Positions 21,923 through 60,811 of a stretch of DNA of 64,000 nt are shown one piece after another. The notes below the pieces were generated by a model. It worked only from the letters and a program-made list of their open reading frames with translations, was not told the origin of the DNA and did not search any database. Where the stretch lies: positions 35,216,001 through 35,280,000 of the forward strand of contig OZ231126.1 of the NCBI GenBank assembly GCA_965153355.1. Reading direction: 5' to 3'. How positions within the stretch are numbered: the first letter of the stretch is position 1; each line of letters begins with the position of its first letter. A program made the position numbers and the translations under genes. The DNA comes from Flaccisagitta enflata (Eukaryota).

Positions 21923-22184
21923 GTATTATCTAGCAAAAGACTAAATCGAATTCTGGCTTTCTTTTTTTTAACGGGCAAATGTTGTTTCAGTTTTCATACG
22001 TATGAGCGTTAAAAAGAAATTTTAAGTTTCTGCCCCGTGTGCATGCAAACGTGTGTGTAAACATACATGTAAATATACACATATATCTATATATATAAAA
22101 AAGCGGCTTAAAGCAAATTTAAGTTTCAGGATATAGGGATATAAGCGTTCTTTCTTGCAATGTAACTACAGGATAAAAAGGACA

Positions 22185-22525: not shown

Positions 22526-23228
22526 TTCAAATGATATGCACGAATCTATAAGAATCTACCAGTAAATCATTCTTTCGCCATTCCTTCACCTCTAAATATG
22601 CGAGACTGTAACCTGATGACCATTTGTTGATCATTCTTTCACCGCGATTTATTTGTAACTCTAACCCGTTTTGTCCTTTTTTTTATATTGCATCAAACAT
22701 AACCATGGTTATCACATAAGAAAAAAAGATCTTTTTGACTCATGTACCATTGAACTGCGTATGTAAAAGTAGCACAAAGACATTTGGTTAATGACAAAAA
22801 GCCAACCAACATTGCTGTCAATGTCAGTTTTGAAAGAAGAGTAGTAGTAGTAATAGTCGAGTAGTTAATATTGTCCATCTTTCATATATAGGGTAATCAC
22901 AACCTTAATGATAATTGTTAGTACTACTTCTGTACATAACGAATGATATCATTTATGTATACAATTTATAGTACAACGTAATACAAGGTAAATACATAAT
23001 ACTACGTACTACTTCGTACTAGGTAATTACAAAATACAACGTAACACTACTTTTGAATAGCACCAATGATACCATTTATGTAAAGAATCAAGTACTATTT
23101 ATTACATTTTATATTAGCATTCAAAGATCTACGGGGCCTTATAAGGGCCCCCTAGAGAGTGTTTTTTTTTTACACACTACGTACAATGGTACTGTTAAGA
23201 AACAAAAGAAATTGCCTTCACACACACA

Positions 23229-23335
<107 letters not shown>

Positions 23336-23388
23336 TAGACGCCGCCGCCTCTTCCTATGTACACGTTGACGCGACAAATAAAGTTCCG

Positions 23389-23772
23389 CTAACCAGTTTT
23401 ATCCTCTTCCGGTGGGGGCGGTGAAACGCAAACATTTGGACACACATGTGAAGAGGCGCGTTTGAGGGTAGCGGCGGAGGCGCACGAAGCGGCGGAGGCG
23501 CTCGAAGTTACCATGGGAGGCATGCGATGACAACCGATTTTTGCATGCAGCGGATGCAGCGGTATGGGTCGTAATATCGCAGCGGGTGCATCGTGGGAAC
23601 TTTCGTTGGATTGTGGTTGCTGTTGCTGTTGTTGCTGTTGTTGCTGAAGATAGATTTGGATCTCCTCTCGGCGTTGTGGATTCGATTGCGGTTGACGCTC
23701 TTGTTGTTGTTGTTGTTGTTCTTGTTCTTGTTCTTGTTCTTGTTCTTGTTGTTGTTCTTGTTGTTCTTGTTC

Positions 23773-23861
<89 letters not shown>

Positions 23862-26800: not shown

Positions 26801-29660
26801 GTGTCAACGAGATGGTTGTTGTTCGCTTTGTTAGATTGTTCGTTATTCGCTGTTGTTGGGTTTACGTGCGAGCGAGAGGAACACGCAGAAAACGATTGAG
26901 AATAGGTCAAGGACGACGAGGACGATCCAGAGTAGGAACAGATTTTGTTGGTCTCGTTTACAGTATTCTGCGGTGGTGTAAAATCGTCGTTTTTCGTCGT
27001 TGATGCAACTCTTGTCGCCATCGTCGTCGTCGTCGTCGTCGTCGTCATCATTGTCGTCGTCGTCGTCGTCGATGTTAACGAGGTAGCTGTCATCGTCGTC
27101 ATCGTCGTCGTCGTAGTCGCTAACCGTCTCGTCTCCATCGCCGTCGTGGTTGAAACCAGCGGGTCCGGCGCTTCCTCCGCCTCTATGTCGGATGTACAAT
27201 GATTCAAATTCGACGAATCTGCGTTTCCTGCAGGATTTTCGTCGTTGTTGTCGTCGACATTGTCGTCGCTCCCCTTTTGTGGGTTCGACAACGACGATTT
27301 TGATGTCGTGGTTTCGTTTTCGATGTTGACGTTGTTGCTGTTGACGTTGTTGGCATTCAGGCCGTAGAGATCCCTCACAGTTATTTCCTCCTGGATTATT
27401 TCGATTTCCCCGATTGACGAGTCTGGAATCTGTTGTCTCGGGGATTTGAATGGAGACTGATGTTGGCTGTTGGATGATGGCAGCTGGGAATGATGGCAGC
27501 TGGGGATGATGGTTTCCAGACATTTTGATGACGAACGGGTAGCTGCTTTCAGACGCTTCGGGGTAGACTCCAGAGTCTCGTTTGATCGTTTTGGCGCAAT
27601 TTCTCTTTCTCCCGGTCTGGTGCTTGTCACGTTGTTGGGAAGAATGAATCGATTAGTTGATTGATTGGGCTCTTGGTGCTCGCTCGTTGGAGATGAGTAT
27701 CGGGTGGAAAGAAATATTTCCCGAGGCAGGCCTGCCCTGCGCGTCGACCTTATCTTATGGTCGCGCCATTTCTCCACGCTGGCGATTGAGTGTTGAATTT
27801 TCTTTGCGATGTCTCTAGTTTGCTGTGGCGTCGGATACGGGTATTGACGGTGCCACAGCGTGAGAATCCTATCATACGCCAGGAGAAGAGAAGGACCCGT
27901 GTAAGGCATCCATCTCAGGCAACGCTGCCGTTGGTCCCTAAACCAGCTGTCCACATACAACCTTGTTTCAATAAAAAAAAAGAGGGATAATTGAAAATGA
28001 TGTTATTCAAAAATGATGTCATTCAAAATGTTTGACTGATCGACTGATTGATTGATCGACTGATTGATTGATTGATTGATTGATTGCTTGACTGCTAGAC
28101 TGATTAAAAATGATTGATTGAAAATGATTGGCTGGTTGACTGATTGTTTTACTGATTGATTGACAAAAAATGATTGCCAATGTCTGACAAGGATCGACAG
28201 AAATTATTCTGTAAAAACAACAGCTCAAATACGGTTTCGACAAGAATTACCTGTTCAGTGTAAGGTGACGCTGTATACACGCGATCTCAAGTGGACGTGG
28301 CCTTGGAGAGAATCTTTCGAAAACCGACAGTAGGATGCATTCGACCCTTTGATAAATGGGCCGAATGTTTTTTTCTTCGAGGAAAATTTTCTTTTCGTTG
28401 CAAAATCGTTTCCGCTTCTTTTGGATCCATCTTCGTAGACACCTTTCGGAAATGTTGTAGCGTCGTTGTAAATACGGAATTGCAGATTCGCTGAGGTATT
28501 CTGCATCCTCGAAATCGTCGGCTAGAACATGGAGATTCTCTTGTTGTACTTCTTCATCTATCCATTGTTCTTTTGCGATTGGTTTCTTTTGCCTTCGTAT
28601 GTAGTCTTTTGCGTCGTCGAAAATTTCCGCGATACTTTCGAGCTCCGCAAGGAGCTCAAAAGTTTGATTGGCAGCGATGTCAACGTTCACTGTAAAGCCC
28701 AACGTGTCTGTTTGAATGGCGAAGGCTGCAGCCTGTTCAAGTTCTTGATGAGATTTCTGATCTCGAAGAAGCGCCTGGTACCGCTCTTCCGCCTCCTGCT
28801 GCGACTTTTTTTTCAATGGCATAGGCTCTTTCTTTTTAACGTTGTTCAATTTTTGCCATTCACGCCGATACCTTTCCTTTAACCGTTCCTTCCGCTGCGT
28901 ATCATAAGGTTTTTTTTCAACCTTCTTTTTGAAATAGTTGGTCCCGGACTCAACTTTGGAATTGAAATTGAAGGTCCCAGACCTATGTTGAAGCCCCGCT
29001 TGCTGTTAAGCCTATTAACGGCGCCCGGTCCCCGATTTTGCGGTAGGATTGCGGAGCGGGGCCAGGAAATGGTAGAGGTTGAAGTGACAGATGAGGTTGT
29101 TGAGTTAGTAGAGGCGGCTGTAGAGGCGGCTGTAGAGGCGGCTGTAGAGGTAGAGAAAAAGGCGGTAGAGGAAAAGGCGGAAGAAAAGGCGGAAGAGGCG
29201 GCTTTTGAGGAGGAGGAGGAAGAGGTGGAAGAGGAGGTAGTATAGGAGGAGCAGGAGGAGGAGGCACTTGAGAAGGAGGTAGTTTAATTGTCTCATTCGA
29301 AGCAGTTGAGAGGCTGTTTCGCTTTGTTAAACTGGTTCTTGATTCATTCGTTGGTGGTGATGACAATGTTGATGATGCGTAAGACGATGGATAAAGCACG
29401 CGCATTGATGAGTTTGGGTGGTGAACGGCGGATAGTGAAGAATAACGCGAATAACGCGCAGAATTTGTTGGGCCTGCATGAGTTGCTGCATGACCGAGAA
29501 GAGAAGAACGACGACGATGGTCAGAGTTGTTATGAGAGTTAGCGATATTGCGAAGTTGAAGGTGGGAGTCATATGGACAAAAAGGTCCGTCCACGATGTT
29601 GTCATGTTGCTGGTTGTCATGTTGCGAGTTTTGCTGCTGGATTACTTTTTCGTTTTCCAT
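23389..29660 (-). CDS. Triple-homeodomain-like protein, copy A (3 exons, about 1900 aa; exon 1 frameshifted near 28980-29070)
   Basis: Exons 29660-28251, 27961-24632 and 24433-23389 with phase-2 GT-AG introns. Three homeodomain-like repeats near 27730-28570. Long P/S/T/Q-rich disordered regions. Confidence 0.75.
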
Positions 29661-29701
29661 GATGTTGAGGTAGAGAGAAAGAGAAGTAGAAAGAGAAGTA
29701 G

Positions 29702-31059
<1,358 letters not shown>

Positions 31060-33246
31060 AGAAAACAGAGAGACAAAGAGAGAGACAGAGAGAGAAAGAG
31101 AAAGTGAGACAAAGAGAGAGAATGGCAAAGAGAAAAAAAAAAGACGTGATCCGCATGAACGGAATGAAAAATCAATGTGCAAAAAAGTACAACTACCCCT
31201 TCCTTATATACCCGAATCTAAAGAGGAAAGGGGGGGGGGGAAGAAAGGCCAGTTTTGTTTTCCTAAAAACCCCCCTAATACAAAGAAAAAACGACAAAGC
31301 CCCTCTATATATATATATTTTACACAAAAAACAAAAAAAACAAAAAAACCGAAGCCTAATCTAAATAAGGAAAAAATTTGGAATCAAAGAAATAACAAAA
31401 ACCAGATACCCCTAAATAAAACAGATTAAGACAATATTTTATCACCTTCAATAACATTCCTTTCCACCGTTTTCTTTGTTATCTCAATTCGAGGACTCCA
31501 TTTGAATCTCCAATGTCCGGGTTTTTTTCTCCATTTCTCCATTATCTCTGTATTTCTTTGGTTGACTTATTCCTCAGCTCCTCTCGACTCCCAAATTTCT
31601 CAATTTTCGACTTCTTCGACTTCTCACTCTCTCTCACTTCTCTCTCTCTCTCTCTCTCCCCCAAACACCTCCCCTCCCTCCCACCACCACCACCACCACC
31701 ACCAACACCAACACCACCTCCACCACCCACCACCCACCACCCACCACCACCAAAGGGGGAGGAAAAAAGGGGGAAGGGGGAGGGGAGGGAGGGGGAGGGG
31801 AAAAGGAGGGGGTGGGGGGAAAAGGATGGGGAGGGGAAGGGGGAGGGGAATGTTTAGGGGTTCCCCCTTATTCCCTTTTTTAAAGATTACCATGGCCGGT
31901 TATCACGTAATCTTTATACTTATTATTTCATTAATGAATAGACAAATTTTTTTTTTTTTTAAATTACCAGCGGCCGAAGGCCGCTGGTAATCACACACAC
32001 ACACGGACTATATGAACGATCAAAATTATATTTATGGTAGTCTTGATTTCCCCTTCGATACCATATATGTGTAAGAAAGAAAAAAAAGAACCGTCGTCGT
32101 GGTGTAAGTACTAGACCAAGTACATACGTACATACATACACCATACAACATATACACACATCGAAAGCAATTACACGCCAGATTGCCATCATCACGCCGA
32201 GTAGAATCATCGGATTATCACCTGTATGTTTCTTCATTAAGAATATATCCGCTTTGTGTCTTCTTCTTCCGCGATCGATATCGATAGCGGCGTAACGCTC
32301 CGTCGTCGTCTCGCATCTTCATCGTCGTATTCGTCGTCGTCGTCGTCGTCGTCGCCTTCTCAATCGATCGATCGATTTGCCGCTAAAAATCCCGCTGTAT
32401 TTCGCCACGAACTCGTTCTTTTGAGGTCGCCACTGTAGCCGTTTTCCGCTCTCGTCGTCGTCGTCGTCGTCATCGTCGTCGTCGTCCAAAGATTCCTCGA
32501 CAATGATTCCTCCGTATATATATATATTTTCGTAGACACGGAGGAGATGATGATGATCGAGGGATGATCGAGGGATGATCTGTTGTGAGGCGCCGCTCAT
32601 CATGAGCACCGAGTTGTTGTCACGAGCGGGTCGTCACGAACACGAGTTTGTCCTCCGTGTGACCTCCATTCCGCACCTTGTTGTCCCGCTTCCGCTCCGC
32701 TCCGTTCCATTCTGCCAGAGGTTGTTGTTAGACAGGGACAAGGACAAATTATTCAATTATTATTCTGCCAGAGGTTGTTGTTAGACAGGGACAAGGACAA
32801 ATTATTCAATCACGCCAAAATTTAGAATCAAACAAAGCGCGTATTCATTTAAACTAATCAAATATGGCTTTTTTGTTTTGTTTTGTTTTAAATCTGTTTC
32901 TTTTTTTCTCATTCTCTGTCTCTCTCTCTGTCTCTCTGTCTGTCTCTCTGTTTCTCTGTCTCTCTTTGTCTCTCTTTGTCTCTCTTTGTCTCTCTCTGTC
33001 TCTCTTTCTTTGTCTCTCTCTGTCTCTCTCTGTCTCTATGTGTCTCTCTCTGTCTCTATGTGTCTCTCTCTATCTGTCTCTCTCTGTCTCCTCTCTCTTT
33101 TTAAAAGAATTTTTTAAAGGGCAACAACATTATGTGTGTTGTTTTTTTTTTCACTCCAAACGCACCTGCCAAACGCACCTGGCATTTCCACTCAAAACGC
33201 ACCTGGCACCATCGCTTCTTATTTTGTTTATGTAGCTTTTATCGTA

Positions 33247-33788
33247 TGGTATTATCATTTGACATCTGGAATGTGAAATTCCTGCGTCAAGCTCTCTTTC
33301 TTTCTTTCCTTCCTCTTTTTCTTTTTTTTCTTTCTTTCTCTCTTTCTCTCTTCCTTTCTTTTTCTCTTCCTTTCTCTCTTTCTATCTTTGTCTCACTCTT
33401 TAGATCTTCAGCGGGAAAGACAACGTATTGCGTATCAACGCTTTTACGTTATTTTATGCCCTTATTTAGTACATTGCCACCAACAGCCTTAATCTACTTA
33501 AGCCATACGACTATATCAGACCGTGTAAGAAGTGAAATTCACAAAAACGCCAAATTCTGGGGCGTACCGGCCTATATCTACGAAGGGTAAGAGTAGCCTT
33601 TTGAGCATTTTGAGAGAAAAAAGAATCAATAAAAATTATCTATTGTTATGATCAATATTATTTTTGGCCGCCCAGTGCTCTAACTGAAACAACCCCCCCC
33701 CCCCTTTTTTTTGTTTCTCCTCGTTACAGAGGACTTTTGAATCCTCAATTCTTACAATCACTTGCCCTTACAAAATCGAAAAGATTAC

Positions 33789-33837
<49 letters not shown>

Positions 33838-35061
33838 CCATGAGCATTCATTAGAGGGGGAAGAGAACGAGGAAGAGGAGGAAGAGGTGGAAGAGGAGGA
33901 AGAGGTGGAAGACGATAATAAGGGAGGGGATGAAACTAAACATAGGGAGAAAGGGAACCAAAAACAACATCGGAAACGCCCATTCAAATCCGGCAAAAAA
34001 TATTGCGCCATGACAAACGCAGATGACTCAGAGGATAACACCAATGACGATGATTATTGCAAAGCTTTTATAAAGCAAGTAATTAAGCCTCGTCGTGAGC
34101 CAAAACATAAAGACGATGATGTTATTATGGACGGGCTGGGGAGCAAAACCACCAATAGTAACAACGAACAACGACGGTTACGCAATAACATACCAAGACA
34201 ACGGATAAAACGCTGGAGTAATTACATGACATTGCAAGACAAACCGATGAAATACAAAAGTTTCCTGCTTTCGGACTCTAAATTTGCGCCGGAAACAAAC
34301 ACGACAACAACAACAACGACAACAGAAATGACAAAAAACAACGACAATCGGCCTTCTCACCTTCTCGACAAAAAGGGTGGACGTGTACAGACACGTTTCA
34401 TGCGCAGTAAGCTCCAAGACAAAGAAGTGGAGGATGATGATGAGGATGGTGAGGGACCAACGACCTCCGCTGATAAATTGCGTCGTTCCAGGAGGCCGAA
34501 ACGAAGGAAACTCGAGAAGGAAGGCGATGAGCAGGAGGAGGAGGAAGAGGAGATTGAGGATGATGAAGAGGAAGAGCGGAGGAAGGCGAGATCGAACGAC
34601 GATGATGATGATGATGACGATGAAGGGAGGAGGGTGACGGGGGAAGAGGAGCGTGAAGGAGAGGAGAAGGGCGCCCCTGGCGCTATAAATAAGAGTACAA
34701 CGGATAAGGACGAGAAACGTAACACCGCGCCTGTCAGAGAGGAAGATAACGAAGAAAGGCAAAAGATTAAATCCGACGAACACGCAAATCTCATCAGGGA
34801 TGCTGTAAAAAAAAGAATCAATTATGAACGCGAACGTGAAAGGCAAAAAGACAGCAACAAACCAAACGCAAACACTCAAAGACAGGATAATATTATATTC
34901 CCACCACTCTCTATTTTACTAGTGGACGATTACATGTTGGTCAACAGTTCTAACTCAACGGGAAATCAAGACTACCATGAGGATATAAACGCGACATTTC
35001 GCCGTGACGTCACTGCAACCTACAAGACGTTATCCAACATTTTTAGCTCCCTTTCCAACCA
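33247..35061 (+). pseudogene. Packaging ATPase, copy A (partial; exon-1 3' end deleted, truncated by gap)
   Basis: SSAGKTT exon at 33403-33587 and ILLVDD Walker B near 34910-34930. Relative to copy B, the segment after gcgtcaagct (about 33293) is missing. Confidence 0.7.
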
Positions 35062-35094
35062 NNNNNNNNNNNNNNNNNNNNNNNNNNNNNNNNN
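35062..35094. other. Assembly gap (33 N)
   Basis: Run of N. Confidence 1.
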
Positions 35095-35590: not shown

Positions 35591-35875
35591 GTCTTTTTTT
35601 ATCTTGTTTGAGGCCTTTGGGCGAATCAGGAAGTGACAAACATCATAAAATGGGAAAGAAGAAATAAAATCAAGCAAAAACAAGGCCAACACCTATAAGT
35701 CGCGTGCGAGACTTACAGATTGACTTAGAATATCTTAGAATGACTTGAAATGACTTAAAGAAAGAAAAATTAATAAAAAAAGTAAAATGGGGACCGACCG
35801 ACTGACCGACCGACCGACCAACCGACAGACGGACAAAGCGGGGTGTAGCGTCGCGTGCACGCGACTAAAAAAAGA
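35190..35875. mobile_element. Host SINE-like repeats flanking copy B
   Basis: gactctacacaccgctatgtcggtccgtcggtcgg (35200) and reversed gcggggtgtagcgtcgcgtgcacgcgactaaaa (35840); same family as fragments near 1600 and 1915. Confidence 0.7.
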
Positions 35876-36783: not shown

Positions 36784-36999
36784 TCATAGTACATTGGGTG
36801 TTTTTGTCTCGTTGTTGACCATGAAGGCGTTAGTATTGTTATTTCTCAACATGCAAGAAGTAAGTCTATCAAAGGAGAAGTCTGTCACAAGTAGCCCAAG
36901 CACAATGATAATCAAAAGCACTTTTAAATACTTTGTATTAGATGTTATTGTGGTGCGTATGTTGAGAAAAACAGATGGGATGTTCTCATCAACATCCAT
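36784..36999 (-). CDS. Small single-pass membrane protein (71 aa)
   Basis: Hydrophobic YLKVLLIIIVLGLLV; ATG at 36999 preceded by tttttccag|ata. Confidence 0.55.
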   Translation of the reverse strand: MDVDENIPSVFLNIRTTITSNTKYLKVLLIIIVLGLLVTDFSFDRLTSCMLRNNNTNAFMVNNETKTPNVL

Positions 37000-37035
37000 T
37001 ATCTGGAAAAACAAAGCACAATGACGCACAGGAAA

Positions 37036-37590
37036 TTAAACCGTGCACAATTTGTAAGCTCTTTTAAGAATATAGTTTTCAATTCCAAAAAGCCTGTATT
37101 TTTTTAGCAATGTTTTTAATTTATATACACCTTTCAAACCATGATGTGCAAAATACCACACAAAATAAACAATTTCAAAGCCACAATAGTTTGAGTTAAT
37201 TCTTTGCGTCTTCACATTCCAGACATCAAGGTATAAGTCGTTATATTTACAAAAATTATCAATATCCTTTTTCAAGTCTTGATTTGAACGATAGTTTGAT
37301 AATAATCCATCAACGAATATACATCTACCAGTTTTACCAGTTATTCTCTCTATAAGAAGGACAGTCCAGTGACCAACTTTGCCAGTGTTAGTTTCCGAAC
37401 TATGCATAGTATTAATAATCACGGCAAGCGACTTTTGTTTTTTACACACTCTTGACAGTTGAGGTAACTTATCATAATTCACTACAAATCTTCCCTTTCC
37501 AATAGCGTTATAGGCTTTTTTAAACTTGCTCAAATAATGGATTAAATCTGAATCGCTGGTAATGAGTACATCAGATGTGAATAATGCCAT
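37036..37590 (-). CDS. Adenain-like cysteine maturation protease (184 aa, intronless)
   Basis: AVIINT...GHWTVL (His), FVDGL (Asp), QRINSNYCG (oxyanion Gln and catalytic Cys), typical of Maverick/adenovirus proteases. Confidence 0.92.
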   Translation of the reverse strand: MALFTSDVLITSDSDLIHYLSKFKKAYNAIGKGRFVVNYDKLPQLSRVCKKQKSLAVIINTMHSSETNTGKVGHWTVLLIERITGKTGRCIFVDGLLSNYRSNQDLKKDIDNFCKYNDLYLDVWNVKTQRINSNYCGFEIVYFVWYFAHHGLKGVYKLKTLLKKYRLFGIENYILKRAYKLCTV

Positions 37591-37592
37591 AT

Positions 37593-39628
37593 TTATTGTT
37601 CAGCTTCATAGCCTTTAAATGTCGTTCTATCATGCTCAATAGCTAAAGACCTCAATTGAGAATAAACGACCGTGAGCCTCAAAACTTTTTGAACAGGATT
37701 TTCAAACTTACAGTAGATACTGAAATCATTACTTGGTGAAATAGACCGTGGTTGTGTTTTGTTCATAAGTCCTGCATTAGCCCCCCCAACATTATTATTA
37801 GCGCTTAAACAAAAAGGCAACAAAAATTTGTCCTCCAACCAAAGATTGTAAGGCAAGCTGGCCGAACCTTCTTCATTAAGTTTGCCGAATTGTTGCAGTA
37901 CGTAAAAATATGAAGCTTTTTTACCAGCGTCTGTCGAGAAATCATAACCCTCCAGTTGACCCCCATTATTGCTATAAGCTAAGCTGGGTATTTTAACGGC
38001 GGAAACTCCACTTGAGACGTAAGTATGAACAAGACCATTTCTTTGGAACCGATAAAAATCTTCCTGGTATCTACCAACATGTGTCTGAAAACAAAATGTT
38101 AAATTGTTATTTAATGTAATCCATGTCGATAGCAGTCGATAACGTAACTCAATGTATAACAGAGTTATTACCGTATTTGGAGAAAGAAAGACTATGATGT
38201 TTGATATCGGATCTCGTGTCGAAATGTTAAACGATTTCTCCAATATTCCAGTTTCAATGCTAGTACATAAGACAAAAAAGACAAGAGACAAAAAGACAAA
38301 AGATAAAAAAAACATGTCAATACCAGTCGTACTCTTGGCTGGCTAAAAGACAAAAATTGGAAAAGACAGACATGAGTACCTAAATGACTTGACAAATTTG
38401 GCTAGGAAGTCAATTTGCAGGAAAGATTTAGCCAAACGACTTTCCATGGCTTGAAGGAGAACTGGTTTTAACAAAATAAACTCAACAAGTAGTTTAGCAT
38501 CCAAAATCTTAAATGTTGGTTTACTGGCCGCAGATGTGGTTGTAAAATACTTCTCAGGCGATGTTAGATATATACGAATCCCAACTTCAAGATTCGATGG
38601 TAATAAACTGTTGAAGTTTAAGAATGCGCTTTTTAAGGACATGAAAAATTCCTGTTTTTGTTTTTTAAGAATTTTTAAAGTTCTCCTTCCCCTGCCATTC
38701 TTTCCTGTGTGGGTTGTTTCCCCGTCCACAGTTTTGGCGATTAATGCCAGTGCTGGCGTTGTATACTTTTCTGCTTCGTCTTCTTCAAACCCTAAACAGA
38801 CAAATAAACAAACAAATAGCCACCAGTTGTTGATGGACGACTAAGGGCGTTTTCTGCATGGGTAGGGGTGTGTCCGCAGGGGGACCAACGGACCGACGGA
38901 CGGACGGACGGGCAAAGCCTTTTATAGAGTCGCGTGTCTGCAACTGAAAATGTTTTATCGTTTACAGTATTTTTTAACAAACCTTCAAAAAATTGAAGGT
39001 AGCTGTCTTTTTCTTTTTGGGTCCTTTCAAAAAGCATCTCAAGATACGTGATTAACGCAAAATACTGTGACTGGCGGTCAAGTGTGGATTCGCCTATCGT
39101 TACCTTTGAAAAAAAATGATGATTATAAATGAAATGGACCAGATAAACAAAAAAAGACATTTTTTCCAGGATAAATTTTACACTTACAGAAACATCGTCA
39201 ATCAAACCATGGGACATAATTGGGCATGACACTGTGATATTATCATCAGCTGTTATTGCAGCATCTCCTTCTTTTTGGTATTGCACCGTTAACGAGAGAT
39301 AAATCCTGTAGATAATAGATTAGAAAAAAAATTGTGTGAGGGTTATCGGTTACTAAAAAAAAAGGGTTACTGGTTTTTTGCGGTTATTGAAGAAAGTCAA
39401 ATTCGGTTACCTATGTGGATTAAGCAATGCAACCTTATCCAATATATAAAACGAAATCGAGCGAGAATGCACTGAAAGCTCTTGAGGGTCGACGGGTAGG
39501 ATAGTTTTAAAAGTACGGTAGAGTATACCATCCAAAATAAATGACTGCTCGTTCAACCCCCCTAGTACTTCAGGTGTTTGAATTAGTTTTGGCGCGTGAA
39601 AAGTCGGTGGCGCTCTTGTTTCAGCCAT
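37593..39628 (-). CDS. Major capsid protein (double jelly-roll type), 6 exons, about 482 aa
   Basis: Exons 39628-39411, 39305-39188, 39103-38983, 38791-38380, 38259-38172 and 38084-37593, all GT-AG and phase-compatible. Spliced product shows Maverick MCP-like motifs ISFYI, HGLIDDVSVTIG...YFALITYLEMLF, LLPSNLEVGIRI, AKLLV...LKP...ESRL, GRYQEDFYRF. Confidence 0.82.
38830..38950 (-). mobile_element. SINE-like fragment inside MCP intron 3
   Basis: Reverse strand reads cacgcgactctataaaaggctttgcccgtccgtccgtcggtcc, same family as 35200. Confidence 0.65.
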
Positions 39629-39631
39629 AAT

Positions 39632-39904
39632 TCACAAAAAATTTTTCTTTGTGATTTTATCTTTTTTCTTTTGTTTTTTAATTTTCTTAGGCGTTTTTTT
39701 AGGCAATTTTTTACTTGTTTTTTTTGATAGATTTTTAGGGTTTCCTTGTGTCTTTGTTTGTTTTACTGTTTTAGTTTTGGATTGTCTATTTGGTTTTTCA
39801 CCACTTTTGTTGTTTTCACTGATGGAAGGTTCGGGGCTCAGGTGATTTTCGGTCACGTCAGCGATTTTAAGTAAAGGTTCCAATAATTTAAGTAGATTAG
39901 CCAT
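39632..39904 (-). CDS. Lys-rich basic protein (90 aa), putative core protein
   Basis: KKTSKKLPKKTPKKIKKQKKK; lies between minor and major capsid genes; acceptor ccttag 6 nt upstream of the ATG. Confidence 0.6.
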   Translation of the reverse strand: MANLLKLLEPLLKIADVTENHLSPEPSISENNKSGEKPNRQSKTKTVKQTKTQGNPKNLSKKTSKKLPKKTPKKIKKQKKKDKITKKNFL

Positions 39905-39967
39905 ATCTCTCTAAGGATTTGTACAAGAATAACAAAAAATAGGTAGGCATCTTAAAACAATGATAGG

Positions 39968-41755
39968 CTAGGTTAATGGGCACGGTCTGAACGTAAGAGC
40001 GATTTTTACAATTGTGTCCCGCGGAAAAAGCAGGAATTCTCCATTTTCATCAAAAAGCATCACTTTGAAGGAGTTAAGATGTGTGCGTGCCTTATGTACA
40101 CGGAAAAACGGCTGGGATGGCATTTTAGAGGCTTCAATAGCAATAAACTGTGTACCAAGAGTTTTGGGTTTTAGAGATACTTTAAAAAAGCTGACCATAT
40201 CGTTCCTAGTAAAGAAAGTTTGCTCCTTCTCCATTTGTCGAGACTGTTCAGATAATATGTCACATGCAATAATCAATAATTTTGGGAAAATACGCATCGA
40301 AGCGCTAAGCCTTTGTTTGGGACTCATTATATTGTGAGCAACTCCTGTTTCATTTCTTTTCACGTCTGCCAACGAAATAGGCCCGATTGTGATTTTGTTA
40401 TAATTTTGCGTTGTGATGTCACGGCTTGAACCGAGTTTGTAAGACAAGATAGGAGAGAAAACAATAGATATATGGCTACGCTCTGCCAATTTTGTAAACT
40501 CTAAGTAAAATTTGACCTTGGTTTCGCTTATATCTAGACCTATTGCGGCAAAAGGTCGCGTAAATAGTTGAGAGTTTGAACTATTTTTCAGGCGCTCAAT
40601 TTCAATAGCGATTAAATCCCTAATTTTTTGGCCGATTTTGAACAATTCGATATTATGAGAGATAATCTCCTCAGCATATTTTTTGGACTCTCCAACAAAT
40701 ACGGTTTGAGCCTTTCCGTCTATTTGCTTTACCTCTGTAGTCGCCTTGTCTATAATTCTCAACTTTCTAAACAACCTTGATGTAATTTTACGTTTATTTT
40801 CGGTAACCTTGGCAGCGTTATTGGCGTTTGCTTCCGCCCCCCTTTTTCGTTTATTCGAATCAAGTTCTACGTCGTAATAATCACTGAGATCAATAAGGGT
40901 ATTTGGTTGTACGGCACTACCATCCTCAATGATTATACTAGAGCGATCGGCTAGCGGTAAAAAAAACTTTGAGGGCCTTAAAATCCCAGCTTCAAAATCA
41001 CTAGTCATGCTGGGTCTTAAGTATGTTACATTGTATGGAATCAATTTGGTTATTGGCCTAAGAGGCTCGGACAAGCCATTGAGATACTGGATAATTTCAA
41101 ACCTGGCAAAAAAACCGATATCCAAATATCTTAAAAGAAGCTCAAGTTCGGTTCTAGTTACATTCATAATATTTTCCCCATCTAATTTATCAAATACCCT
41201 AAAATCAAAAATTCCGTGATGGTCTAGGAATAACTCTGAATATCGCGCGATAAGAAACATATTTGATCCGTTTGAAAGGAGAGTATTGACGTGTCTGACA
41301 GCTTGATGAATGTCAGCGCTGTAGAAGTCCGATAAGTTAACCACTAGAGGTGTATTGTTTTTTATTTCCAACTTCCTTTCGCTAAATATAACATTGTCCC
41401 TTGCCAAATGTGTGGCTAATGTTACATATGTTTTTATGTTTTCATCAGGATCAGCCCGAAAAAGAAGAGGAGAGGAGTCGATCAATAGCGTGTCAACGCG
41501 AACCTGAAGGGGGGAAATGGTGGCATTGTTAAGAGCTGGGGCTATGTGTCTGTAATTAGCAGGCTGGTAAAGTATGCCACGTACCTCCACGTCGGGACTC
41601 TGAAGAAAACTGAGTTGGGCTAAATCAAGTGGCGGATTTAAGTCAACTTCGAAATTGCTACCGCTCGAAATACGTTCTGGCGGCAAGCTCATTTCAGTTT
41701 TTTCGTTAGACACATGCAGCGTGTAACATTCCGATGAATTCGCGTTGAAATTCAT
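39968..41755 (-). CDS. Minor capsid protein (penton-like) with large central insertion; probable 81-nt in-frame intron 41504-41584
   Basis: N-terminal YTLHVSN...SNFEVDLNPPLDL...EV and C-terminal FFRV...LNSFKVMLFDENG..LLF...IALTFR match the Maverick penton pattern. Confidence 0.75.
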   Translation of the reverse strand: MNFNANSSECYTLHVSNEKTEMSLPPERISSGSNFEVDLNPPLDLAQLSFLQSPDVEVRGILYQPANYRHIAPALNNATISPLQVRVDTLLIDSSPLLFRADPDENIKTYVTLATHLARDNVIFSERKLEIKNNTPLVVNLSDFYSADIHQAVRHVNTLLSNGSNMFLIARYSELFLDHHGIFDFRVFDKLDGENIMNVTRTELELLLRYLDIGFFARFEIIQYLNGLSEPLRPITKLIPYNVTYLRPSMTSDFEAGILRPSKFFLPLADRSSIIIEDGSAVQPNTLIDLSDYYDVELDSNKRKRGAEANANNAAKVTENKRKITSRLFRKLRIIDKATTEVKQIDGKAQTVFVGESKKYAEEIISHNIELFKIGQKIRDLIAIEIERLKNSSNSQLFTRPFAAIGLDISETKVKFYLEFTKLAERSHISIVFSPILSYKLGSSRDITTQNYNKITIGPISLADVKRNETGVAHNIMSPKQRLSASMRIFPKLLIIACDILSEQSRQMEKEQTFFTRNDMVSFFKVSLKPKTLGTQFIAIEASKMPSQPFFRVHKARTHLNSFKVMLFDENGEFLLFPRDTIVKIALTFRPCPLT

Positions 41756-41833
41756 GTTTGGCCTAAGTATCTGTGGTAACTAAAGATACAATACAATACA
41801 ATACAATACAGTACAATATAATCCAATAATAAA

Positions 41834-43462
41834 CTAGATAATATATTTTTTCAAATGAGAGTCATTCAAAATGTCCTGATCATAGGTAAGGATTTTGGGA
41901 CCAAAGAGTCGTTTATATAGCTTTAATGTGTTTCCATCCACAAATTGCCTGGTACCATTATTTGTTATATCATAACTCATTTCAAAAGCGTGCGCATATT
42001 TCTTTCCACTTCGGAGTTTTGATTCAACTTGTGGAATTATGTTGTTCACTACAATCACTGGTTTACTTAGGGATTTTTCCTTTATGGCTTTATTTTCATG
42101 CAAGTCATTTTCCTTTTCAATAAGAGGGTTTACTTTCATTAAGCTCCAAGCGTAAAACTTCTCATCGGTGGGCCTATTTTCCAAAATATATTGGTATGGC
42201 AAGCGCTGGGTCAAAATTTTTTTTATGACATATGTCTCTTCAGATACTTGTGGATAGAAGACAGATGATTCCTTTCGAATCAATTTTTTTGGATATCTAA
42301 TTCTAACAACATCATTTATTTTTAACTTTCTATTTTCATGAAGTGTTTGATAACGAAGAAATGCATCGCTCTGGTGTTTCTCATATGTAACCAGCGATTT
42401 CCTAAAAACTACACTTGCAGCGTAATCAAAATGTTGAACTAGATGAGGATTAAATTGAAATAGGCCTTTATGACTTTTAGAGTTAAAAGCGATTTGGGTT
42501 AAATGAATGAGATGTTCATAATTCTTTACTGTAGGGAACCGTAGTAAAAATCGAAAAAACAGCGCTTTCCAGCTTCTGATTTGTCGTTCTATAAGCGAAA
42601 CTTTCTTATGTGGCCCAGTTGACAAATACACATGCTTAAGACCCAAACGTTTTCCAAGTCCCTTTCCGAATTCGCCACCTCTGTCTGTAACGAGAGTCGT
42701 GTAATGGTTATTTGGAGCAAAAAAAGGGAGACATTCTTGAAATTTTTCATAAATTTCATCGGCGGTTGCCGTTTTGCAGACGCGGAGTTGGCAAAATCGA
42801 CTAAAACAATCGATAAGACAGAATATGATGGTTGGAGCGGCGCCTTTGGTGACCTCAGTCCTCTTGACTATGGAAATTGGCCTCAAAAAAGCCAAATCGC
42901 TGGCTATTTGATTCCCTTTTTTTTGGAAAGAAAAAAATATTGTATCACGTATTGTATTGTTTTGGGTATTGTATTGTTTTGTCATGTGTATTGTGTATTG
43001 TATTGTATCACGTATCGTATTGTATTGTATTGTATCGTGTATTGTATTGTATTGGGTTTTTTATTGTATTGTATCACAAAATGTATTGTATTGTATTGTA
43101 TTGTATTTTATGATTTGTATTTATTGTATTATACTCCAAATTTGTTTTGTATTGTTTCGTAATGTATTGTATTGTATTGTATTGTATTGTATTGTATTGT
43201 ATCGTATACCTGGCCCGTAACATTCCCACTTTCTTGTACTTTCGTAACGGCGACGGCCTCGTAATTCGCGTGCTTCCACGGAGCGGGATATATTGTAAAG
43301 ACTCGCACGATAATCCAGCACATCTTGTGAGGTCAAATTGTAATCAGCATTTGCTCTGGCATCCTCTAATATTGAAGATGTGTTTGGATGCAAAAAAATA
43401 TCTTTTTCAGAGTCGTAATATCGCGTCAATAGTCTTTGTAGGCTTGCTGTCTTTTCATCCAT
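41834..43462 (-). CDS. Retroviral-like (rve) DDE integrase, 2 exons, about 444 aa
   Basis: Exons 43462-43210 and 42915-41834 (phase 1). QIASDL (D), LIDCFSR, VTDRGGEF (D), SLIERQIRSWK (E), FNSKSHKGL, INDVVRI...SEETYVIK. Confidence 0.93.
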
Positions 43463-43511
43463 GTTAAAAATTCCCTGTGTTTATAAAAAGAAGCTTTACA
43501 GAAAACAATCC

Positions 43512-44477
43512 TCATTTGACTAGGTGGCGTATAAATTTGCAAGGGATTCGTTTTTTAGAGACTGGACAGTTTTTAAGAAAAATAGCCAAACAATGTTTTT
43601 CAGCCTTGGTAAATGGTTTGACTGTTTCATAACGATATTGCAGAAACTTAAAAAGTTTAGATCTATTGAAAGATATACAAGCCAATAAATTTGCTAGGTC
43701 CAAAGAATGTGGAGATTGCTCATTATCCTTTAAGGGAAAATACACAAAGCGTTTCTTTAAGTAAAAGCGATTTTTGGGGAGATGAATACTGCTAGTTTTT
43801 CTGTCAAAAGCACCTCTGTTTTCTACAAATTTTTGTAATGCCGAGGCGTGATTCCGCAAGTTGTCTAAAAAGATAGTATTCACCTTATTTTTCATGTAAG
43901 TTAAAACCACATTAACAGCATCCTGTATCCAAATGGCTGATGAATTTCTAGAAGTATTTTTTGACATAGATACACGACTGTCATCAGAGTTATGATTATC
44001 AAGTTGTAATACCCCTTTCAATTTAGAATTTTTCCCAGTTTTTTTCTTTTCGATAACAGTATTATCAGAGCTTGGTTCAGTTAATACCGAATTTGTGGTT
44101 TGAATTTCACTGCCACCCTTCATTACATTTGGATGGGCTGCCTCATGATCAGCCATGATTTCTCGTTCTTTTATTAATGTTGATTGTAGTTTATGTCTGT
44201 TAAAACAATCTGTTAATAAATAACTTTTCGCTTCGTCGTTGAATGATTTACTTTCAAGAATTTTAAGACATTCCTTTCGTAATTTCTCTATGTCCATTTT
44301 TGCTATGTCATTACTTTTATTAACATCACCAGCTCCTTCTTTTATATCAATATTTTTATCCTCGGTAGACTGCGTTGGTTCAGGCACGAGTTCCTTTTTA
44401 TTTTCTGTTTCACTACTTTTTGTTTGTTTGTGGAGGTGTTGAATAGCAAGCAAAACGATCGATAAAAAATCGTGTTC
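43512..44477 (-). CDS. Hypothetical protein (about 320-aa terminal exon; upstream exon unresolved)
   Basis: Long open frame directly upstream of the integrase, with an acceptor cag near 44478. Contains MKGG, a possible adenain cleavage motif. Confidence 0.6.
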   Translation of the reverse strand, partial: EHDFLSIVLLAIQHLHKQTKSSETENKKELVPEPTQSTEDKNIDIKEGAGDVNKSNDIAKMDIEKLRKECLKILESKSFNDEAKSYLLTDCFNRHKLQSTLIKEREIMADHEAAHPNVMKGGSEIQTTNSVLTEPSSDNTVIEKKKTGKNSKLKGVLQLDNHNSDDSRVSMSKNTSRNSSAIWIQDAVNVVLTYMKNKVNTIFLDNLRNHASALQKFVENRGAFDRKTSSIHLPKNRFYLKKRFVYFPLKDNEQSPHSLDLANLLACISFNRSKLFKFLQYRYETVKPFTKAEKHCLAIFLKNCPVSKKRIPCKFIRHLVK

Positions 44478-44724
44478 CTGAATGAATGAATGAATGAATT
44501 CATTTTCGACGACAAAGGAAAATTACAATATTGGGCATTGTAAAACTGTTATATATATACCTCTATAATAAATTTTCGTGTAACGTTAGTTGCAGCTGAA
44601 AGAAGATTTCTTCTTATGTTTTCTGATAAATCCGTTAGCTTCTTTTTTATGACTTCATTTTCCTTTTGGCTATCCATTTAAAACATTGGGCATTCCTGTT
44701 GTGACATGAAATAAAAATATAGTA

Positions 44725-47492
44725 TTAACTAGTTGGAGCTTTATTCAAATCATAGAAACCATATGATAGGAAATGCATGAAATCACGAATAGCTTGTGAA
44801 TTATCAATAAGTTGATCGTTAGGGGCAACAGGGGCTAAGACTCTGTAGGGGCACATCTTGGAAAGTTTTGCGTACGAGGCCATAAAACAGCCATTTTTTC
44901 GCCATCTTCTACTTCTAAATATAAGGGCAGAAGTGATTAAGGACGCATTGTCATGCTGTCGTACAAACGTGTAAGGGAATTGTTTGCGTTTAGTTGGGAC
45001 CGCAAAGACGTCTCGTGAGGCTAAAGAAATGGCTGGTTTGGTCTTAGATAGAATAAACCTTCTCCTATTTACAAAAAAAGTAGCATCAAAGATCCATGCA
45101 CTCAACTGCTCATCAGACAGATCATGAAATGATGTCGATACAAGCCATGGCTCACAAGTCTTAGAGGAATGAGCCGCTAACACTTTTTTGGCTATGTTAA
45201 GTTGGCTGGCAAGTTTGTATTTTGTAAGGAAAAAGTCTAGTTGTGATGCAATTTCTGGATAGAATATATCTTGCAAAAATTGATACCGGCTCTTGCCAAA
45301 AATTATCTCAGATGTTTTAGATAGAATATCAAATTCCAATTTTCTTGTGAGTTGCAAACGAATGATCTGTGATAAAGTTGGAAATGGGACTTCTTTGTTG
45401 ATGTCACAAAGCCTCCCTCCATCAACTGTCTCGATTTTAAACGTAAAACCCGAGCAGGCAGCCAGCGTTATGTAAAAGCGGCAATCAAACATTTCATCCT
45501 CGTTAGCGTGTTGAGATTCTACATTTTTATAATGTGGTGGTCGAATATTGTGAAAGACGGATTTGTAGCATGTATCAAGTCTCGTAGAACCGGGAAGAGA
45601 GGCAGATAGGTTAAAGGAAAGGGTGCCTTTTTGTGGATTGAAAACACAACCCATGGTTTCTGGGAGGCTGCCGGACCTCTGCGTTGCAGTACTATAATCC
45701 CTATGATAGGAAAGATAGATAAACCACTTTAGAATAAAAAGACCAACAAAAAAAGACCAACAAAATTATTTTTGAAAGAATAACAGGACAGTGTAAAGAA
45801 AAGAAAAAATTCTACCTAAGAAGATCTAGTACTCTGGAATCTGGATTAAGGCCACTTCTGAATAGGAGGTTAGTCTTTTCTTCTGTTGAAACTATTGTTG
45901 AGGACATACAATCTTCAGCCAGTTCCTCCACCCTGTTAGGTACTGGTTGTCCGGGCCCATATCTGAGAAAAGACAAGAATTGGTCATATTGGTATTGTAT
46001 TGTATTGTATTGTATTGTCGTAATAAGTATTGGGTATTGGTATTGTATTGTATTGGGTATTGGGTATTGGGTATTGTATTGGGTATTGGGTATTGGGTAT
46101 TGTATTGTATTGTTATGTTTTGTATTGGTTTAAGGATATTGTGCGCTTGGTGTATCACGGCATGTACCTGCTGCATTCGTCGCAGGGGTCAAGATTCTCG
46201 GATACACATGATTTGTCGCCCTCTTGAATTGGAATACTTTGGCACATTTCTTGACGCGAAACAAGGCTTGCCGTCTTATTTCTACTGAGCGCCAGACCAT
46301 AACTCCGCGCGAAAAGACAGCTAGACAAGTATTTGGGGTCCTTATGAAAGAGAGAGGTCGAGTAGACCTGCGCCTGGTCTGTTGACTGGCAAATGATAAA
46401 ATTGTCAGGAAAATCATATAACGGAGGAATCTGTTTTAACCCGCTGGCTTTTTCCAAATTGATGCAGGCTTCTTTTTCACATGCATCGCCAAACATAGTA
46501 TTCCAGAAATAAGGCCAGTCTTGGTTTTTCTCTCCTCTATAAGAAGTAGATGCCGTCATGTTTTTCAGCTTCTTTTCCTCAAATTTACCCATTGTAGCCA
46601 CCGATGGTGTTAAACTGATATTCAAATCGCATAAAGAGTTAGGCGGTGGAGGTTCTCGCCTTGTTCCAAGATGTTCCTCCAATTCACAGAAACGCTCAGG
46701 GCGTGGGCCCATATTTGACCTGATTTGGTTATTCAACTGTTCCTCGTTGTCGAGAACTAAGGGCTTCTCATTCAAAACATTTTCAAGTAATTTAGCTGTG
46801 ATTCTATCACGCTGCTGACGGTTTCTCTCACTAATTGGTGAGTCGCCAACAAAATCTTGCGCGGCTTGGCTCCCATTGATGCGGGTTAGCATGTCAGGAA
46901 TCGGGGGCAGTATTTGATGCTGCCAGCGTTGGACACGTCTAGGAGTTCTTGTGTGTCTCAGGGCAAAATTCACATCATAAATTTTCTGATGAATCGACGG
47001 GGCAAAGAAAGCTTCTTCGTTCCAATCACCCATGCGAATTGAGGAATAAATGTATTGCGTCGCTGCCGTGAGCTGTGAGGGTGTGGGCCAATTTCTTTTA
47101 AACCGGTCACGTTTGTTCGTTATCGCGTCCAACTCTGCCTGAAACCTAGGCGACTGATTCAGATACTCGCTATTGCTCTGGTTAAGCAAGCGACGACTGT
47201 GGTCTAATTTTAGCGCTGAGTAACTGCCAGAATGTGGGTACCAGATACCAAACTCAGCCGACGAAAACATTTGGTTTCTTATAGCGTGTTCATCAACACG
47301 AGCAGAGTTCTCTTTCCTGCTCACAGTATCCGCACTCAATTTGTAAACAGAGGGGCAATTTCGGGAATTAATTTGCCAGCTAATAATCAAATAACTAAGT
47401 CTTTGAGCCCCGGACGCGTCACGCGCCATGAGATTACGCGCAGAGACTAGATGTGGCCTTATATCTTTGTTTTGTTCGCAACCTTTAGACAT
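44725..47492 (-). CDS. Three-exon hypothetical protein, about 815 aa (start uncertain)
   Basis: Exons 47492-46168, 45962-45816 and 45700-44725 joined by phase-2 GT-AG introns into one open frame; no motif recognised. Confidence 0.7.
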
Positions 47493-48590
47493 CGAGGTCT
47501 TCAAATTATGTTTTTCTTTGCAGCAAAAGCCTGAGAGTGGAAAATCCTAATCTCAATCTGGCAAGCATTGGAATAAGCGTAAAACAGGATGGATTGACAG
47601 ATAGATAAATCGATAGACGGACTGTTTCCAAAGAGAAGGAAGGCAAGGGATGGACGGTAGGCCAGGGCGGACAAGCTCAAGGGCGGGCAAACTGTTTTTT
47701 CACACACACCTGAAAACCGCTTTTTCTCGGTTTCGCTGCAATTGCTTAGAAAACTCCATGTGTTAACTGAATTTCCTGTAAAATTTTGACTGACGTCGCC
47801 TTCCAGGTTGGATGTATGACGAGTCAGAATTGGCGTCAGAGTCCAATGATTCGCTGAAGGACAGAGGGTGTATTTCACAAAAAGCAAACCCAAGTCGTTT
47901 TATGCTTGAGTTACTAAGATATCATTTACATATCATAAAGACATCATTCAGATATCATATACAGATATCCTTTATATTTGAATTATGAAGATATCAGTTT
48001 GAAATGTCTACATATATATTATGATTATATAAAAGTGAACATATATATATATGAATATATATGGTAGTATGAGGAGTTCACTTAATGTGAAATTCACCTA
48101 AGTGAGCCTTAGTGAATCCCGGGGGACAAAAATTTAAAAAGCTAAAACCGACATCTACGAGTTCTTTTGACATATTGGGATCCGTAAAGGAAAGATTTTT
48201 TTGTTGGCCAAAAAAAAAGTCATGAATGGATTCAGCCGAAGGCACGGCGAGGGCAGCCAGATTGAATTCCAGCCCTGCGCGCGGGAGAGCCTTAGAAAGA
48301 AGAAAAAGGGAAAGCGTTAGATAGTTCCATATTCTGGGGTGTTCTTATAAAGAATTCAAGTGCATTGATAAAAAAGAAAGTGCAGTGAGAAAGAGAAAGA
48401 GAAAAAAAGAACATTGGATTCGTCTTCTTTGATCTTTTGTTTTTCCATTTTGGTCTCGTTCATGCGCAGGCGCTTAACGCCTATCGGCGGTTAGAATAGG
48501 TACTACAAGTTAGCTTTTGAACAAAAGCAACCAATCACTCTGCAGTCATTCCGCGCTACGTAAAAATGCTGCTCTTGTTGCGTTTTTGCA

Positions 48591-48930
48591 AATGCCAAAC
48601 ATGTTTTTGCGGCTCTACTATCGAAACTTATTAAGCGCAACATAGTGAAATACAAAGCTACAGGCATGCAACTCTACAATCGAGGCTTCTTCGTCCGTCG
48701 GTCTGCTTCGTCGGTCGGTCGGTCCGTCGGTCCGTCGATCGGTCCGTCGGTCCGTCGGTTGGTCCGTCTCTCGTTTGTGCCAAACATGTTTTTGCGGCTC
48801 TACAGGCATGCAACTCTACAATCGAGGCTTCTTCGTCCGTCGGTCTGCTTCGTCGGTCGGTCGGTCCGTCAGTCGGTCGGTCGGTCGGTCGGTCGGTCCG
48901 GTCCGTTGGTTGGTCCGTCTCTCGTCTGTG
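48591..48930. repeat. Local duplication containing SINE-like (gtcg/gtcc)n repeats
   Basis: ctacaggcatgcaactctacaatcgaggcttcttcgtccgtcggtctgc occurs at about 48658 and 48800. Confidence 0.7.
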
Positions 48931-58333: not shown

Positions 58334-58400
<67 letters not shown>

Positions 58401-58548
58401 AAAAGAATGTTGTTAATGGTGTATTGCTAAAATAATAGCTTCTTAAGTTTATTGGGGGGGGGGGGGAGAGGGTTAGCAAGGCAAGGAATGTTGTTGCTTT
58501 AGCTTGACGCAGGAATTTCACATTCCAGATGTCAAATGATAATACCAT
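55745..58548 (-). CDS. A32/FtsK-family genome packaging ATPase, 5 exons, about 665 aa, with a large low-complexity insertion
   Basis: Exons about 58548-58478, 58259-58077, 57937-56604, 56400-56292 and 56045-55745. Walker A (A)LSSAGKT, Walker B ILLVDD, SNHLQIHVIAL, RLIKNSIKSYTLF, HDREQ. The first donor would be non-canonical (GC), so exon 1 is uncertain. Confidence 0.78.

Positions 58549-60649: not shown

Positions 60650-60811
<162 letters not shown>

Follow-up and report, generated by a model that had tools for sequence, protein, structure and literature searches.

The window analysed here, a stretch of 64,000 nucleotides (nt) from Flaccisagitta enflata (contig OZ231126.1), harbours on its minus strand a group of genes that resemble, with considerable divergence, those of Maverick/Polinton (adintovirus-like) elements. 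The range 37593-43462 extends from the stop codon of a capsid gene (MCP; 37593) to the ATG of an integrase gene (43462). In minus-strand order, the genes of this block are an unnamed open reading frame (ORF), a second unnamed gene designated the ORF336 gene, integrase, a 603-codon ORF, a lysine-rich ORF, MCP and a protease-like ORF. A polymerase gene (pPolB; 12716-17349, minus strand) is located outside the range, approximately 20 kb away. Four to six element genes are arranged head to tail, with spacers of 50-340 nt. Nine interruptions could be defined on this strand: five in MCP, one in integrase, two in pPolB and one in the ORF336 gene. An earlier note on this DNA had proposed spliceosomal introns in core viral genes, and its counts for MCP, integrase and pPolB agree with ours, one of the two in pPolB having been checked against a homolog and the 5' one being predicted.

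Interrupted genes and their uninterrupted relatives

MCP (37593-39628, minus strand) was modelled as six exons of 29-163 codons and five introns. Exon 1 (39411-39628) starts with the ATG at 39628 and is followed by intron 1 (39306-39410; 105 nt, GTAACC...CTACAG, phase 2), a predicted intron whose junction is covered by no homolog. Exon 2 (39188-39305; 39 codons plus one base) is followed by intron 2 (39104-39187; 84 nt, GTAAGT...TCAAAG, phase 0), which is in frame, contains no stop codon and lies at the junction DVS/VTIG (a slash marks the junction). Exon 3 (38983-39103; 40 codons plus one base) and exon 4 (38380-38791; 136 whole codons) are separated by intron 3 (38792-38982; 191 nt, GTTTGT...GTTTAG, phase 1), which contains a (GTCC)n repeat. 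Intron 4 (38260-38379; 120 nt, GTACTC...TACTAG, phase 2) splits a Ser codon (AG/C) and precedes exon 5 (38172-38259; 29 codons plus one base of the split codon). Intron 5 (38085-38171; 87 nt, GTAATA...TTTCAG, phase 0), also in frame and without a stop, is followed by exon 6 (37593-38084; 163 codons plus the stop), for which 50 homologous protein fragments are available.

The MCP exons were run singly by blastp against the proteins of 74 relatives. For introns 2-5, uninterrupted relatives span the junction, and cutting exactly from GT to AG gives residue-exact colinearity, split codons included. Intron 2 is bridged by P0066, P0075 and P0081, in which (M)IDDVS is directly followed by VTISESTLDR. 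In the cluster of P0066, exon 3 aligned with residues 7-46, exon 4 with residues 48-186 and exon 5 with residues 188-216. The single residue left between the exon matches, found between exons 3 and 4 in 14 of 15 members and between exons 4 and 5 in 11 of 15, is what the phase-1 and phase-2 split codons require, and P0066 and P0028 have Ser between exons 4 and 5, as encoded by the split codon AG/C of the window. Intron 5 is absent from P0024, P0087 and P0034, which have 0 residues between exon 5 and exon 6; six further proteins are contiguous at this position to within two residues (P0048: seven), and P0028 and P0085 were seen to be so by tblastn. In a full HMMER search the last MCP ORF matched 51 proteins. 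Fifty of these were fragments of 49-305 amino acids (aa), and the one long match, of 4702 aa, aligned solely to the part that is intron read-through. Longer relatives of exon 6 were not found in the protein search.

The pPolB gene provides a further junction that could be examined with full-length homologs. P0018 (1433 aa) and P0019 (1365 aa) are uninterrupted and 51-52% identical to the C-terminal polymerase ORF. Both read KKIPQPFE unbroken, where the window has 116 nt (CAG/GTGCGT...TTTTTTTTACAG/CC) between KKIPQ and PFE. This is intron 2 (14717-14832; GTGCGT...TTACAG, phase 0), located between exon 2 (14833-17120), which is colinear with residues 1-767 of P0018 at 41% identity with biggest gaps of a few residues, and exon 3 (12716-14716), which starts with PFEKL, carries the SDTDS motif at 13337-13348 and is 51% identical to P0018 with 0 gaps over 686 aa. 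When P0018 was searched against the window by tblastn, two blocks were obtained that meet exactly at KKIPQ and PFE, and residues 1-1433 showed no other sizeable gap. Exon 1 (17268-17349; ATG plus 27 codons) and intron 1 (17121-17267; 147 nt, GTGAGT...TCTTAG, phase 1) are predicted.

In the integrase gene, exon 1 (43210-43462; 84 codons plus one base, ending in WECYGP) and exon 2 (41834-42915; an rve-like core and the C-terminal region) flank a predicted intron (42916-43209; 294 nt, GTATAC...AAAAAG, phase 1). No uninterrupted homolog spanning this junction was found, and it was placed from signals and frame. Of the 294 nt, 259 consist of an (ATACA)n microsatellite (42949-43207), which tells how the intron grew, not where it came from. 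Among 17 integrase homologs (alignment A1), P0001, P0136 and P0137 are 100% identical to exon 2 and have the acceptor-side sequence of the window with small repeat differences; P0001, which matches exon 2 fully, differs in the intron read-through. P0136, carrying the same interruption, is present on 15 contigs, and each of the 7 members of the P0001 cluster occurs on up to 15 contigs. The junction strings quoted previously are all present in the minus-strand translation (CYGP at 43211-43222, NQIASDL at 42893-42913, KKIPQ at 14833-14847, IDDVS at 39188-39202 and VTIG at 39092-39103). The accompanying statement that motifs are restored exactly was upheld for KKIPQ/PFE and DVS/VTIG by uninterrupted relatives, the integrase junction being predicted. 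Arrays of (ATACA)n are found at 41786-41828, 42949-43207, 45987-46127 and 10613-10636, so that integrase exon 2 is flanked by two of them in opposite orientation, one filling the intron.

The ORF336 gene (43512-44677, minus strand) was predicted from signals and frame to consist of exon 1 (44561-44677) and exon 2 (43512-44477), separated by an intron of 83 nt (44478-44560; GTATAT...ATTCAG).

We then considered the interruptions together. All nine begin with GT and end with AG, the joint frequency of GT and AG in the region being 0.0023. The earlier note had allowed for one exception to GT-AG, and no intron with other ends was found among those definable in the window. At least 70% of the 20 nt preceding the AG are pyrimidines in seven of the eight introns measured, compared with 8.3% of 446 regional AG sites; the value is 65% for the integrase intron and, by eye, approximately 75% for the ORF336-gene intron. 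The G+C content of the eight measured introns is 0.24-0.34, except for MCP intron 3 at 0.47, and that of the exons is 0.35-0.43. The four gene models (MCP, 483 codons; integrase, 445; pPolB, 1457; ORF336 gene, 361) each start with ATG, are a multiple of three in length and have one terminal stop, the check covering every exon in its own frame and, across junctions, split codons only. Five of the nine junctions (MCP introns 2-5 and KKIPQ/PFE in pPolB) are exact to the residue against uninterrupted homologs. Six of the nine intron lengths are divisible by three (binomial p about 0.04).

The interruptions might instead be junk that accumulated after insertion, through microsatellite growth and small insertions, in a dead copy whose genes are pseudogenes and whose interruptions were never spliced. 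The repeat content of the integrase interruption and the (GTCC)n tract of MCP intron 3 would agree with this, as would the absence of several interruptions from related copies, an outcome that had been set beforehand as refuting introns, and one RNA-library contig, described below, that is colinear with the DNA across a predicted donor. Random insertions, however, are unlikely to produce GT...AG behind a pyrimidine tract nine times out of nine at the background given above. They would also not account for residue-exact flanking codons at each of the five testable junctions, for exons that contain neither a stop nor a frameshift in 483+445+1457+361 codons, or for the recurrence of the same interruptions in other copies and diverged relatives. 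We regard an origin as junk as very improbable. Taking into account the uninterrupted relatives, the GT-AG ends and the intact frames, we consider with good confidence that these are real spliceosomal-type introns and not the result of decay.

Intron positions among relatives

The relatives come from public, mostly marine, assemblies, and all comparisons with them were made at the protein level. Their DNA was not found when viral contigs were searched with ORF603 and a polymerase alignment, metagenome contigs with integrase and MCP alignments, and genome contigs with P0018. Several positions are shared with the window. In the P0066 cluster, homology stops exactly after PNT/V, the site of MCP intron 5, and P0066, P0075 and P0081, at least 90% alike in the exons, diverge immediately after this point. 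The homology of P0024 and P0087 starts exactly at exon 5, behind a phenylalanine/serine-rich (pyrimidine-rich) read-through, which fits an interruption at the same site as MCP intron 4. Relatives also carry interruptions at sites that are unbroken in the window. One such site precedes VERQIRS: in P0005, KVSI and VERQIRS are separated by 49 additional in-frame residues, and P0007 and P0009 begin at VERQIRS. At the G codon of EG/Y, 8 of the 27 capsid relatives with the G/Y.F motif lose homology behind pyrimidine-rich read-through; the site is contiguous in the window and in at least 16 other capsid relatives. P0024 also loses homology at EG/Y, but its protein ends just past the site and hence does not include the motif.

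The history of the EG/Y site was followed on a maximum likelihood tree, unrooted, of the downstream part (28 rows, 115 columns). P0040, P0044 and P0070, whose state is ambiguous, had been set aside beforehand, and P0024 was omitted as it is without the downstream exon. As a result, 6 changes were counted on the best tree (bootstrap range 6-7), at least 2 of them forced by well-supported branches alone. The labels were clustered no more than shuffled ones, 121-139 of 500 shuffles giving counts as low. The different subsets of introns carried by relatives indicate that the intron set turns over in this lineage while the exons stay under selection. Since the tree is unrooted, turnover is shown but not its direction, and the mosaic is explained equally well by gain and by repeated precise loss from an old set of introns. 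The widespread intron gain proposed previously is thus more than the mosaic indicates.

The mosaic of presence and absence would also fit recent insertions, which raised the possibility that the introns were made by introners bringing their own splice signals, and reflect introner activity in the host and not slow intron evolution. When eight introns were compared, no sequence in common was detected among them or with the rest of the 64-kb window, microsatellites aside, and no terminal repeats stood out in that search. In addition, identical positions are common to relatives that are just 54-68% identical in protein, which suggests age. As far as the 64 kb searched can tell, an introner origin is considered unlikely. 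Long nuclear residence of the element lineage, as proposed in the earlier note, may have occurred.

Element genes, neighbouring sequence and repeats

Concerning the identity of the element, the genes make up a very divergent Maverick/Polinton (adintovirus-like) set, a membership that formal tests bear out in part. No MCP exon matched a Pfam family or a PDB sequence. A fold model was obtained for the contiguous homolog P0028 (alignment A2, 22 rows), confident for residues 140-305 only. Among 48,161 PDB representatives, the top 9 matches were all double jelly-roll (DJR) capsid proteins, aligned on the second jelly roll: adenovirus hexon (Z 7.6), EhV-201, PBCV-1, Sputnik (7.0), faustovirus, ASFV p72, FLiP, mavirus (6.0) and PRD1 (5.6). 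All of these Z scores are below 8 and count as middling by the structure-search tool's own guide. Foldseek against BFVD gave one match at E <= 0.001, an uncharacterised bracovirus protein (E 2.5e-4), with a MELD-virus protein at rank 2 and an adintovirus capsid at rank 7. Atlas clusters of DJR-like/Capsid_N type were obtained as leads only. According to the model, the C-terminal half of this MCP homolog has its closest structural counterpart in the second jelly roll of DJR capsid proteins.

The window integrase gave a Pfam rve match with an E value of 0.0027 and 18.3 bits, below the cut-off of 32.6. All three integrase proteins scanned gave rve in the same range (E 0.0026-0.004, 17.8-18.4 bits), one of them also rve_3. 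A PDB profile search with the integrase gave no match. By eye, we found D in ASDL, D in TDRG and E in IERQ. As for the polymerase, no Pfam match was found in the window exons, P0018 or P0019, and there was no match among PDB sequences; the fold model, with a pLDDT of 33, was unusable. By eye, against consensus patterns, LDFEAS, HNGKNYDF, DVNGLYAS, KSCGNSLAGK and SDTDS presumably correspond to the motifs Exo I, Exo II, A, B and C, respectively. The P0018 cluster comprises 52 members. One of these, P0094 (649 aa), is assigned at NCBI to a metagenome-assembled genome of Tenacibaculum, but its contig, eukaryotic or viral, seems to have been binned there by mistake. In the polymerase cluster of P0019 (at least 90%), P0111/P0108 and P0118/P0121 are copies split by apparent frameshifts and not by introns, and look like typical decaying members of a repeat family.

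The protease-like ORF (37036-37599, minus strand) has 187 codons from stop to stop, with an ATG near 37590. It is uninterrupted, in line with the protease having been described previously as intronless. It matched nothing in Pfam or among PDB sequences, and the order H...D...Q...C, seen by eye, may correspond to the adenain/Ulp1 motif. The 603-codon ORF (ORF603; 39968-41779, minus strand, ATG near 41755) is a candidate minor capsid (penton) protein. Its neighbours in the Atlas, a lead only, are hypothetical proteins of Preplasmiviricota of 614-617 aa, on par with its own length, and the Sputnik V18/19 penton cluster. The frame is uninterrupted, and an in-frame intron within it was considered and rejected, no strong donor motif being found inside along with 2 acceptor-like sites. 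One intron had been assigned to the penton gene, and the sole candidate in the range does not contain it; what had been noticed may be the ORF336-gene intron.

Among the remaining ORFs of the block, that at 44725-45654 (minus strand) has 309 codons from the first ATG and no Pfam family match. The small ORF between ORF603 and MCP (39635-39901, minus strand) is very lysine-rich in its C-terminal half and, judging from this composition, might encode a DNA-condensing core protein. Between pPolB and the left arm of a large inverted repeat, three ORFs without a family assignment are present (17862-28002, minus strand): one of 1005 codons with C2H2-like cysteine/histidine motifs and a long acidic tail, one with poly-Q, and one of 1124 codons with a weak homeobox-KN match.

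The gene block (37-46 kb) is flanked by inverted microsatellite-like arrays, (GACC)n at 35792-35839 and (GGTC)n at 48705-48899. The same GACC/GGTC unit occurs at 38883-38918 in MCP intron 3, where it draws most of the RNA-library matches. The large inverted repeat has arms at 27643-35061 and 56630-64000 of at least 7.4 kb and 96-100% identity, the right arm running off the window. It brackets a 21.5-kb stretch with the capsid/integrase block, and its arms are without a recognised element gene. The single N run of the window (35062-35094) borders directly on the inner end of the left arm, and the arrangement may consequently owe something to scaffolding.

Proposed expression through splicing and comparison with known systems

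These results raise the possibility, to which we assign a rather high likelihood as a whole, that parts of a Maverick/Polinton (adintovirus-like) element, highly divergent and integrated into the genome of a eukaryote, are present in the window. U2-type GT-AG introns, short (83-294 nt) and rich in AT, would cut the genes for capsid, integrase and polymerase as well as at least one accessory gene. Intact proteins would be formed only after transcription in the nucleus and splicing by the host spliceosome. DNA-copying elements keep introns through copying, unlike retroelements. The element would likewise be copied as DNA, and since it copies itself in this manner, its introns would be passed on to daughter copies and not erased.

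A number of observations weigh against this interpretation. At the level of splicing, no uninterrupted homolog spans four of the nine junctions (MCP intron 1, integrase, pPolB intron 1 and the ORF336-gene intron), which were placed from signals and frame. The MCP introns of 84 and 87 nt keep the reading frame and contain no stop codon, so that their retention, which adds just 28-29 residues, might be tolerated. RNA was compared over 36900-47950, a region with seven predicted introns, using three marine metatranscriptome runs (X1-X3) and one poly-A run (X4). No read or contig of the four runs joins two exons in this region, and coverage of the genes is almost nil. Nearly all matches fall on the (GTCC)n and (ATACA)n repeats, and X2 and X3 gave repeat matches only. 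In X4, of which about 6% was read, 534 of 538 reads lie on these two repeats, 90-95% alike, and are no evidence either for or against expression. X1 gave three contigs (40050-40277, 44509-44854 and 45114-45343) with 0-1 differences from the element, apart from one 14-base gap in an intron repeat. The contig over 40050-40277, within ORF603, is identical to the window. The contigs indicate that the element or a near-identical copy was present in an environmental sample. At the donor of the ORF336-gene intron, the contig over 44509-44854 follows the DNA without a break. This contig also reaches over an intergenic spacer, its depth is about 5, and the library can hold DNA. The contig may represent DNA carry-over or unspliced RNA, and would be weak evidence either way.

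At the level of the element, the family assignment is weak in sequence, with polymerase, protease and capsid all unmatched in Pfam and among PDB sequences, and 20 kb separate the polymerase from the capsid block. Neither terminal inverted repeats (TIRs) nor a target-site duplication (TSD) were found within the 64-kb window. A packaging ATPase of the FtsK/A32 type was not found either, in a search consisting of Pfam on 228 ORF pieces (at least 28 aa, over most of the window) and GK[ST] Walker-A scans. Four introns had been described previously in an ATPase gene, for which the window offers no counterpart. The ATPase may sit in small exons that escape such scans, or beyond the window. The string SSAGKTT occurs at 33414 and 58241 in low-complexity sequence of the inverted-repeat arms, and was judged to be a chance occurrence.

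The intact, intron-bearing genes and the lack of detectable TIRs, TSDs and ATPase would also be expected if these were host genes, domesticated from a Maverick, that later acquired introns like any host gene. This is difficult to reconcile with four to six element genes standing head to tail with short spacers, with the many near-identical and diverged copies in public assemblies (7 members in the P0001 cluster and 52 in that of P0018), or with the frameshifted copies P0118 and P0111, typical of a repeat family. We regard domestication as highly improbable, and retain the interpretation of an integrated, intron-bearing element.

Introns in virion genes imply nuclear, spliceosome-dependent expression. 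Elements of this kind had been predicted in the earlier note to be hidden from ORF-based searches, and the results agree: Pfam sees only the sub-threshold rve, and 50 of the 51 relatives of the last MCP ORF are fragments. Taking into account that surveys of endogenous DNA viruses commonly call genes with prokaryotic tools on the stated premise that introns are absent, that the capsid exons are invisible to Pfam and that relatives are fragmentary, the lineage may be systematically missed or scored as degraded. The mosaic also lends itself to the study of intron turnover in a mobile element that copies as DNA, the relatives forming a natural series. As a tentative extension, Maverick/adintovirus-like elements, probably from marine animals or protists, could include a deep, diverse clade that makes its capsid, integrase and polymerase only via host splicing, with intron positions gained and lost while the elements are active. 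If so, a lineage of DNA viruses would have genes that evolve in the manner of host genes, could transfer introns from one genome to another and would escape ORF-based virus discovery.

Nuclear DNA viruses, including adenoviruses, use host splicing, and introns are present in the capsid genes of some giant viruses. The coding sequence of the adenovirus hexon itself is not known to be interrupted. The element would resemble adenoviruses in that its expression depends on the host spliceosome, while five coding-region introns in a capsid gene represent a different layout. In the literature searched, outside of which were Kapitonov & Jurka 2006, Pritham et al. 2007 and supplements, we found no Maverick/adintovirus-like capsid gene with several coding-region introns at sites common to diverged relatives. 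Precedents for parts of the arrangement are intron-carrying DNA transposons and introner-bearing dinoflagellate Maverick-like elements.

Mavericks/Polintons (PMC8097293) and adintoviruses of animals (Starrett et al. 2021, PMC8502044) have a family-B polymerase of the protein-primed type, an rve-type integrase, a jelly-roll capsid and a cysteine protease, a set to which the candidate genes of the window, standing head to tail, would correspond. The window differs in sequences that are beyond the reach of Pfam except for the weak rve, in the ATPase, TIRs and TSDs that were not found, and in a polymerase 20 kb away. Intact vertebrate Mavericks are reported as intronless in the passages of Barreat & Katzourakis 2021 (PMC8097293) that deal with them, whereas nine introns in four genes are found here. 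A survey of endogenous viruses of protists used prokaryotic gene calling, and a passage in it states that the elements 'do not contain introns' (PMC10120064). Giant-virus insertions are described, in the relevant part of another report, as mostly without introns (PMC11244446). In dinoflagellate Maverick-polinton-like elements, about 25% of viral introners lie in coding regions according to sections of Gozashti et al. 2025 (PMC11957031/PMC12166617). Those eupolintoviral elements, as portrayed there, are similar to the window in having spliceosomal-type introns inside integrated Maverick-like elements that keep capsid genes. They differ in that the introns found here are unique and short, interrupt core coding regions, and in several cases occupy positions common to diverged relatives. 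A further parallel is Ginger1 of Hydra, for which parts of Bao et al. 2010 (PMC2836005) describe an rve-like enzyme gene with 1-4 mostly GT-AG introns at positions conserved among families. Like the element in the window, Ginger1 is a DNA-copying element whose rve-like enzyme gene is cut by introns. In that account, however, Ginger1 is a cut-and-paste element with a single gene, whereas here it is the capsid and replication genes of a virus-like element that are interrupted.

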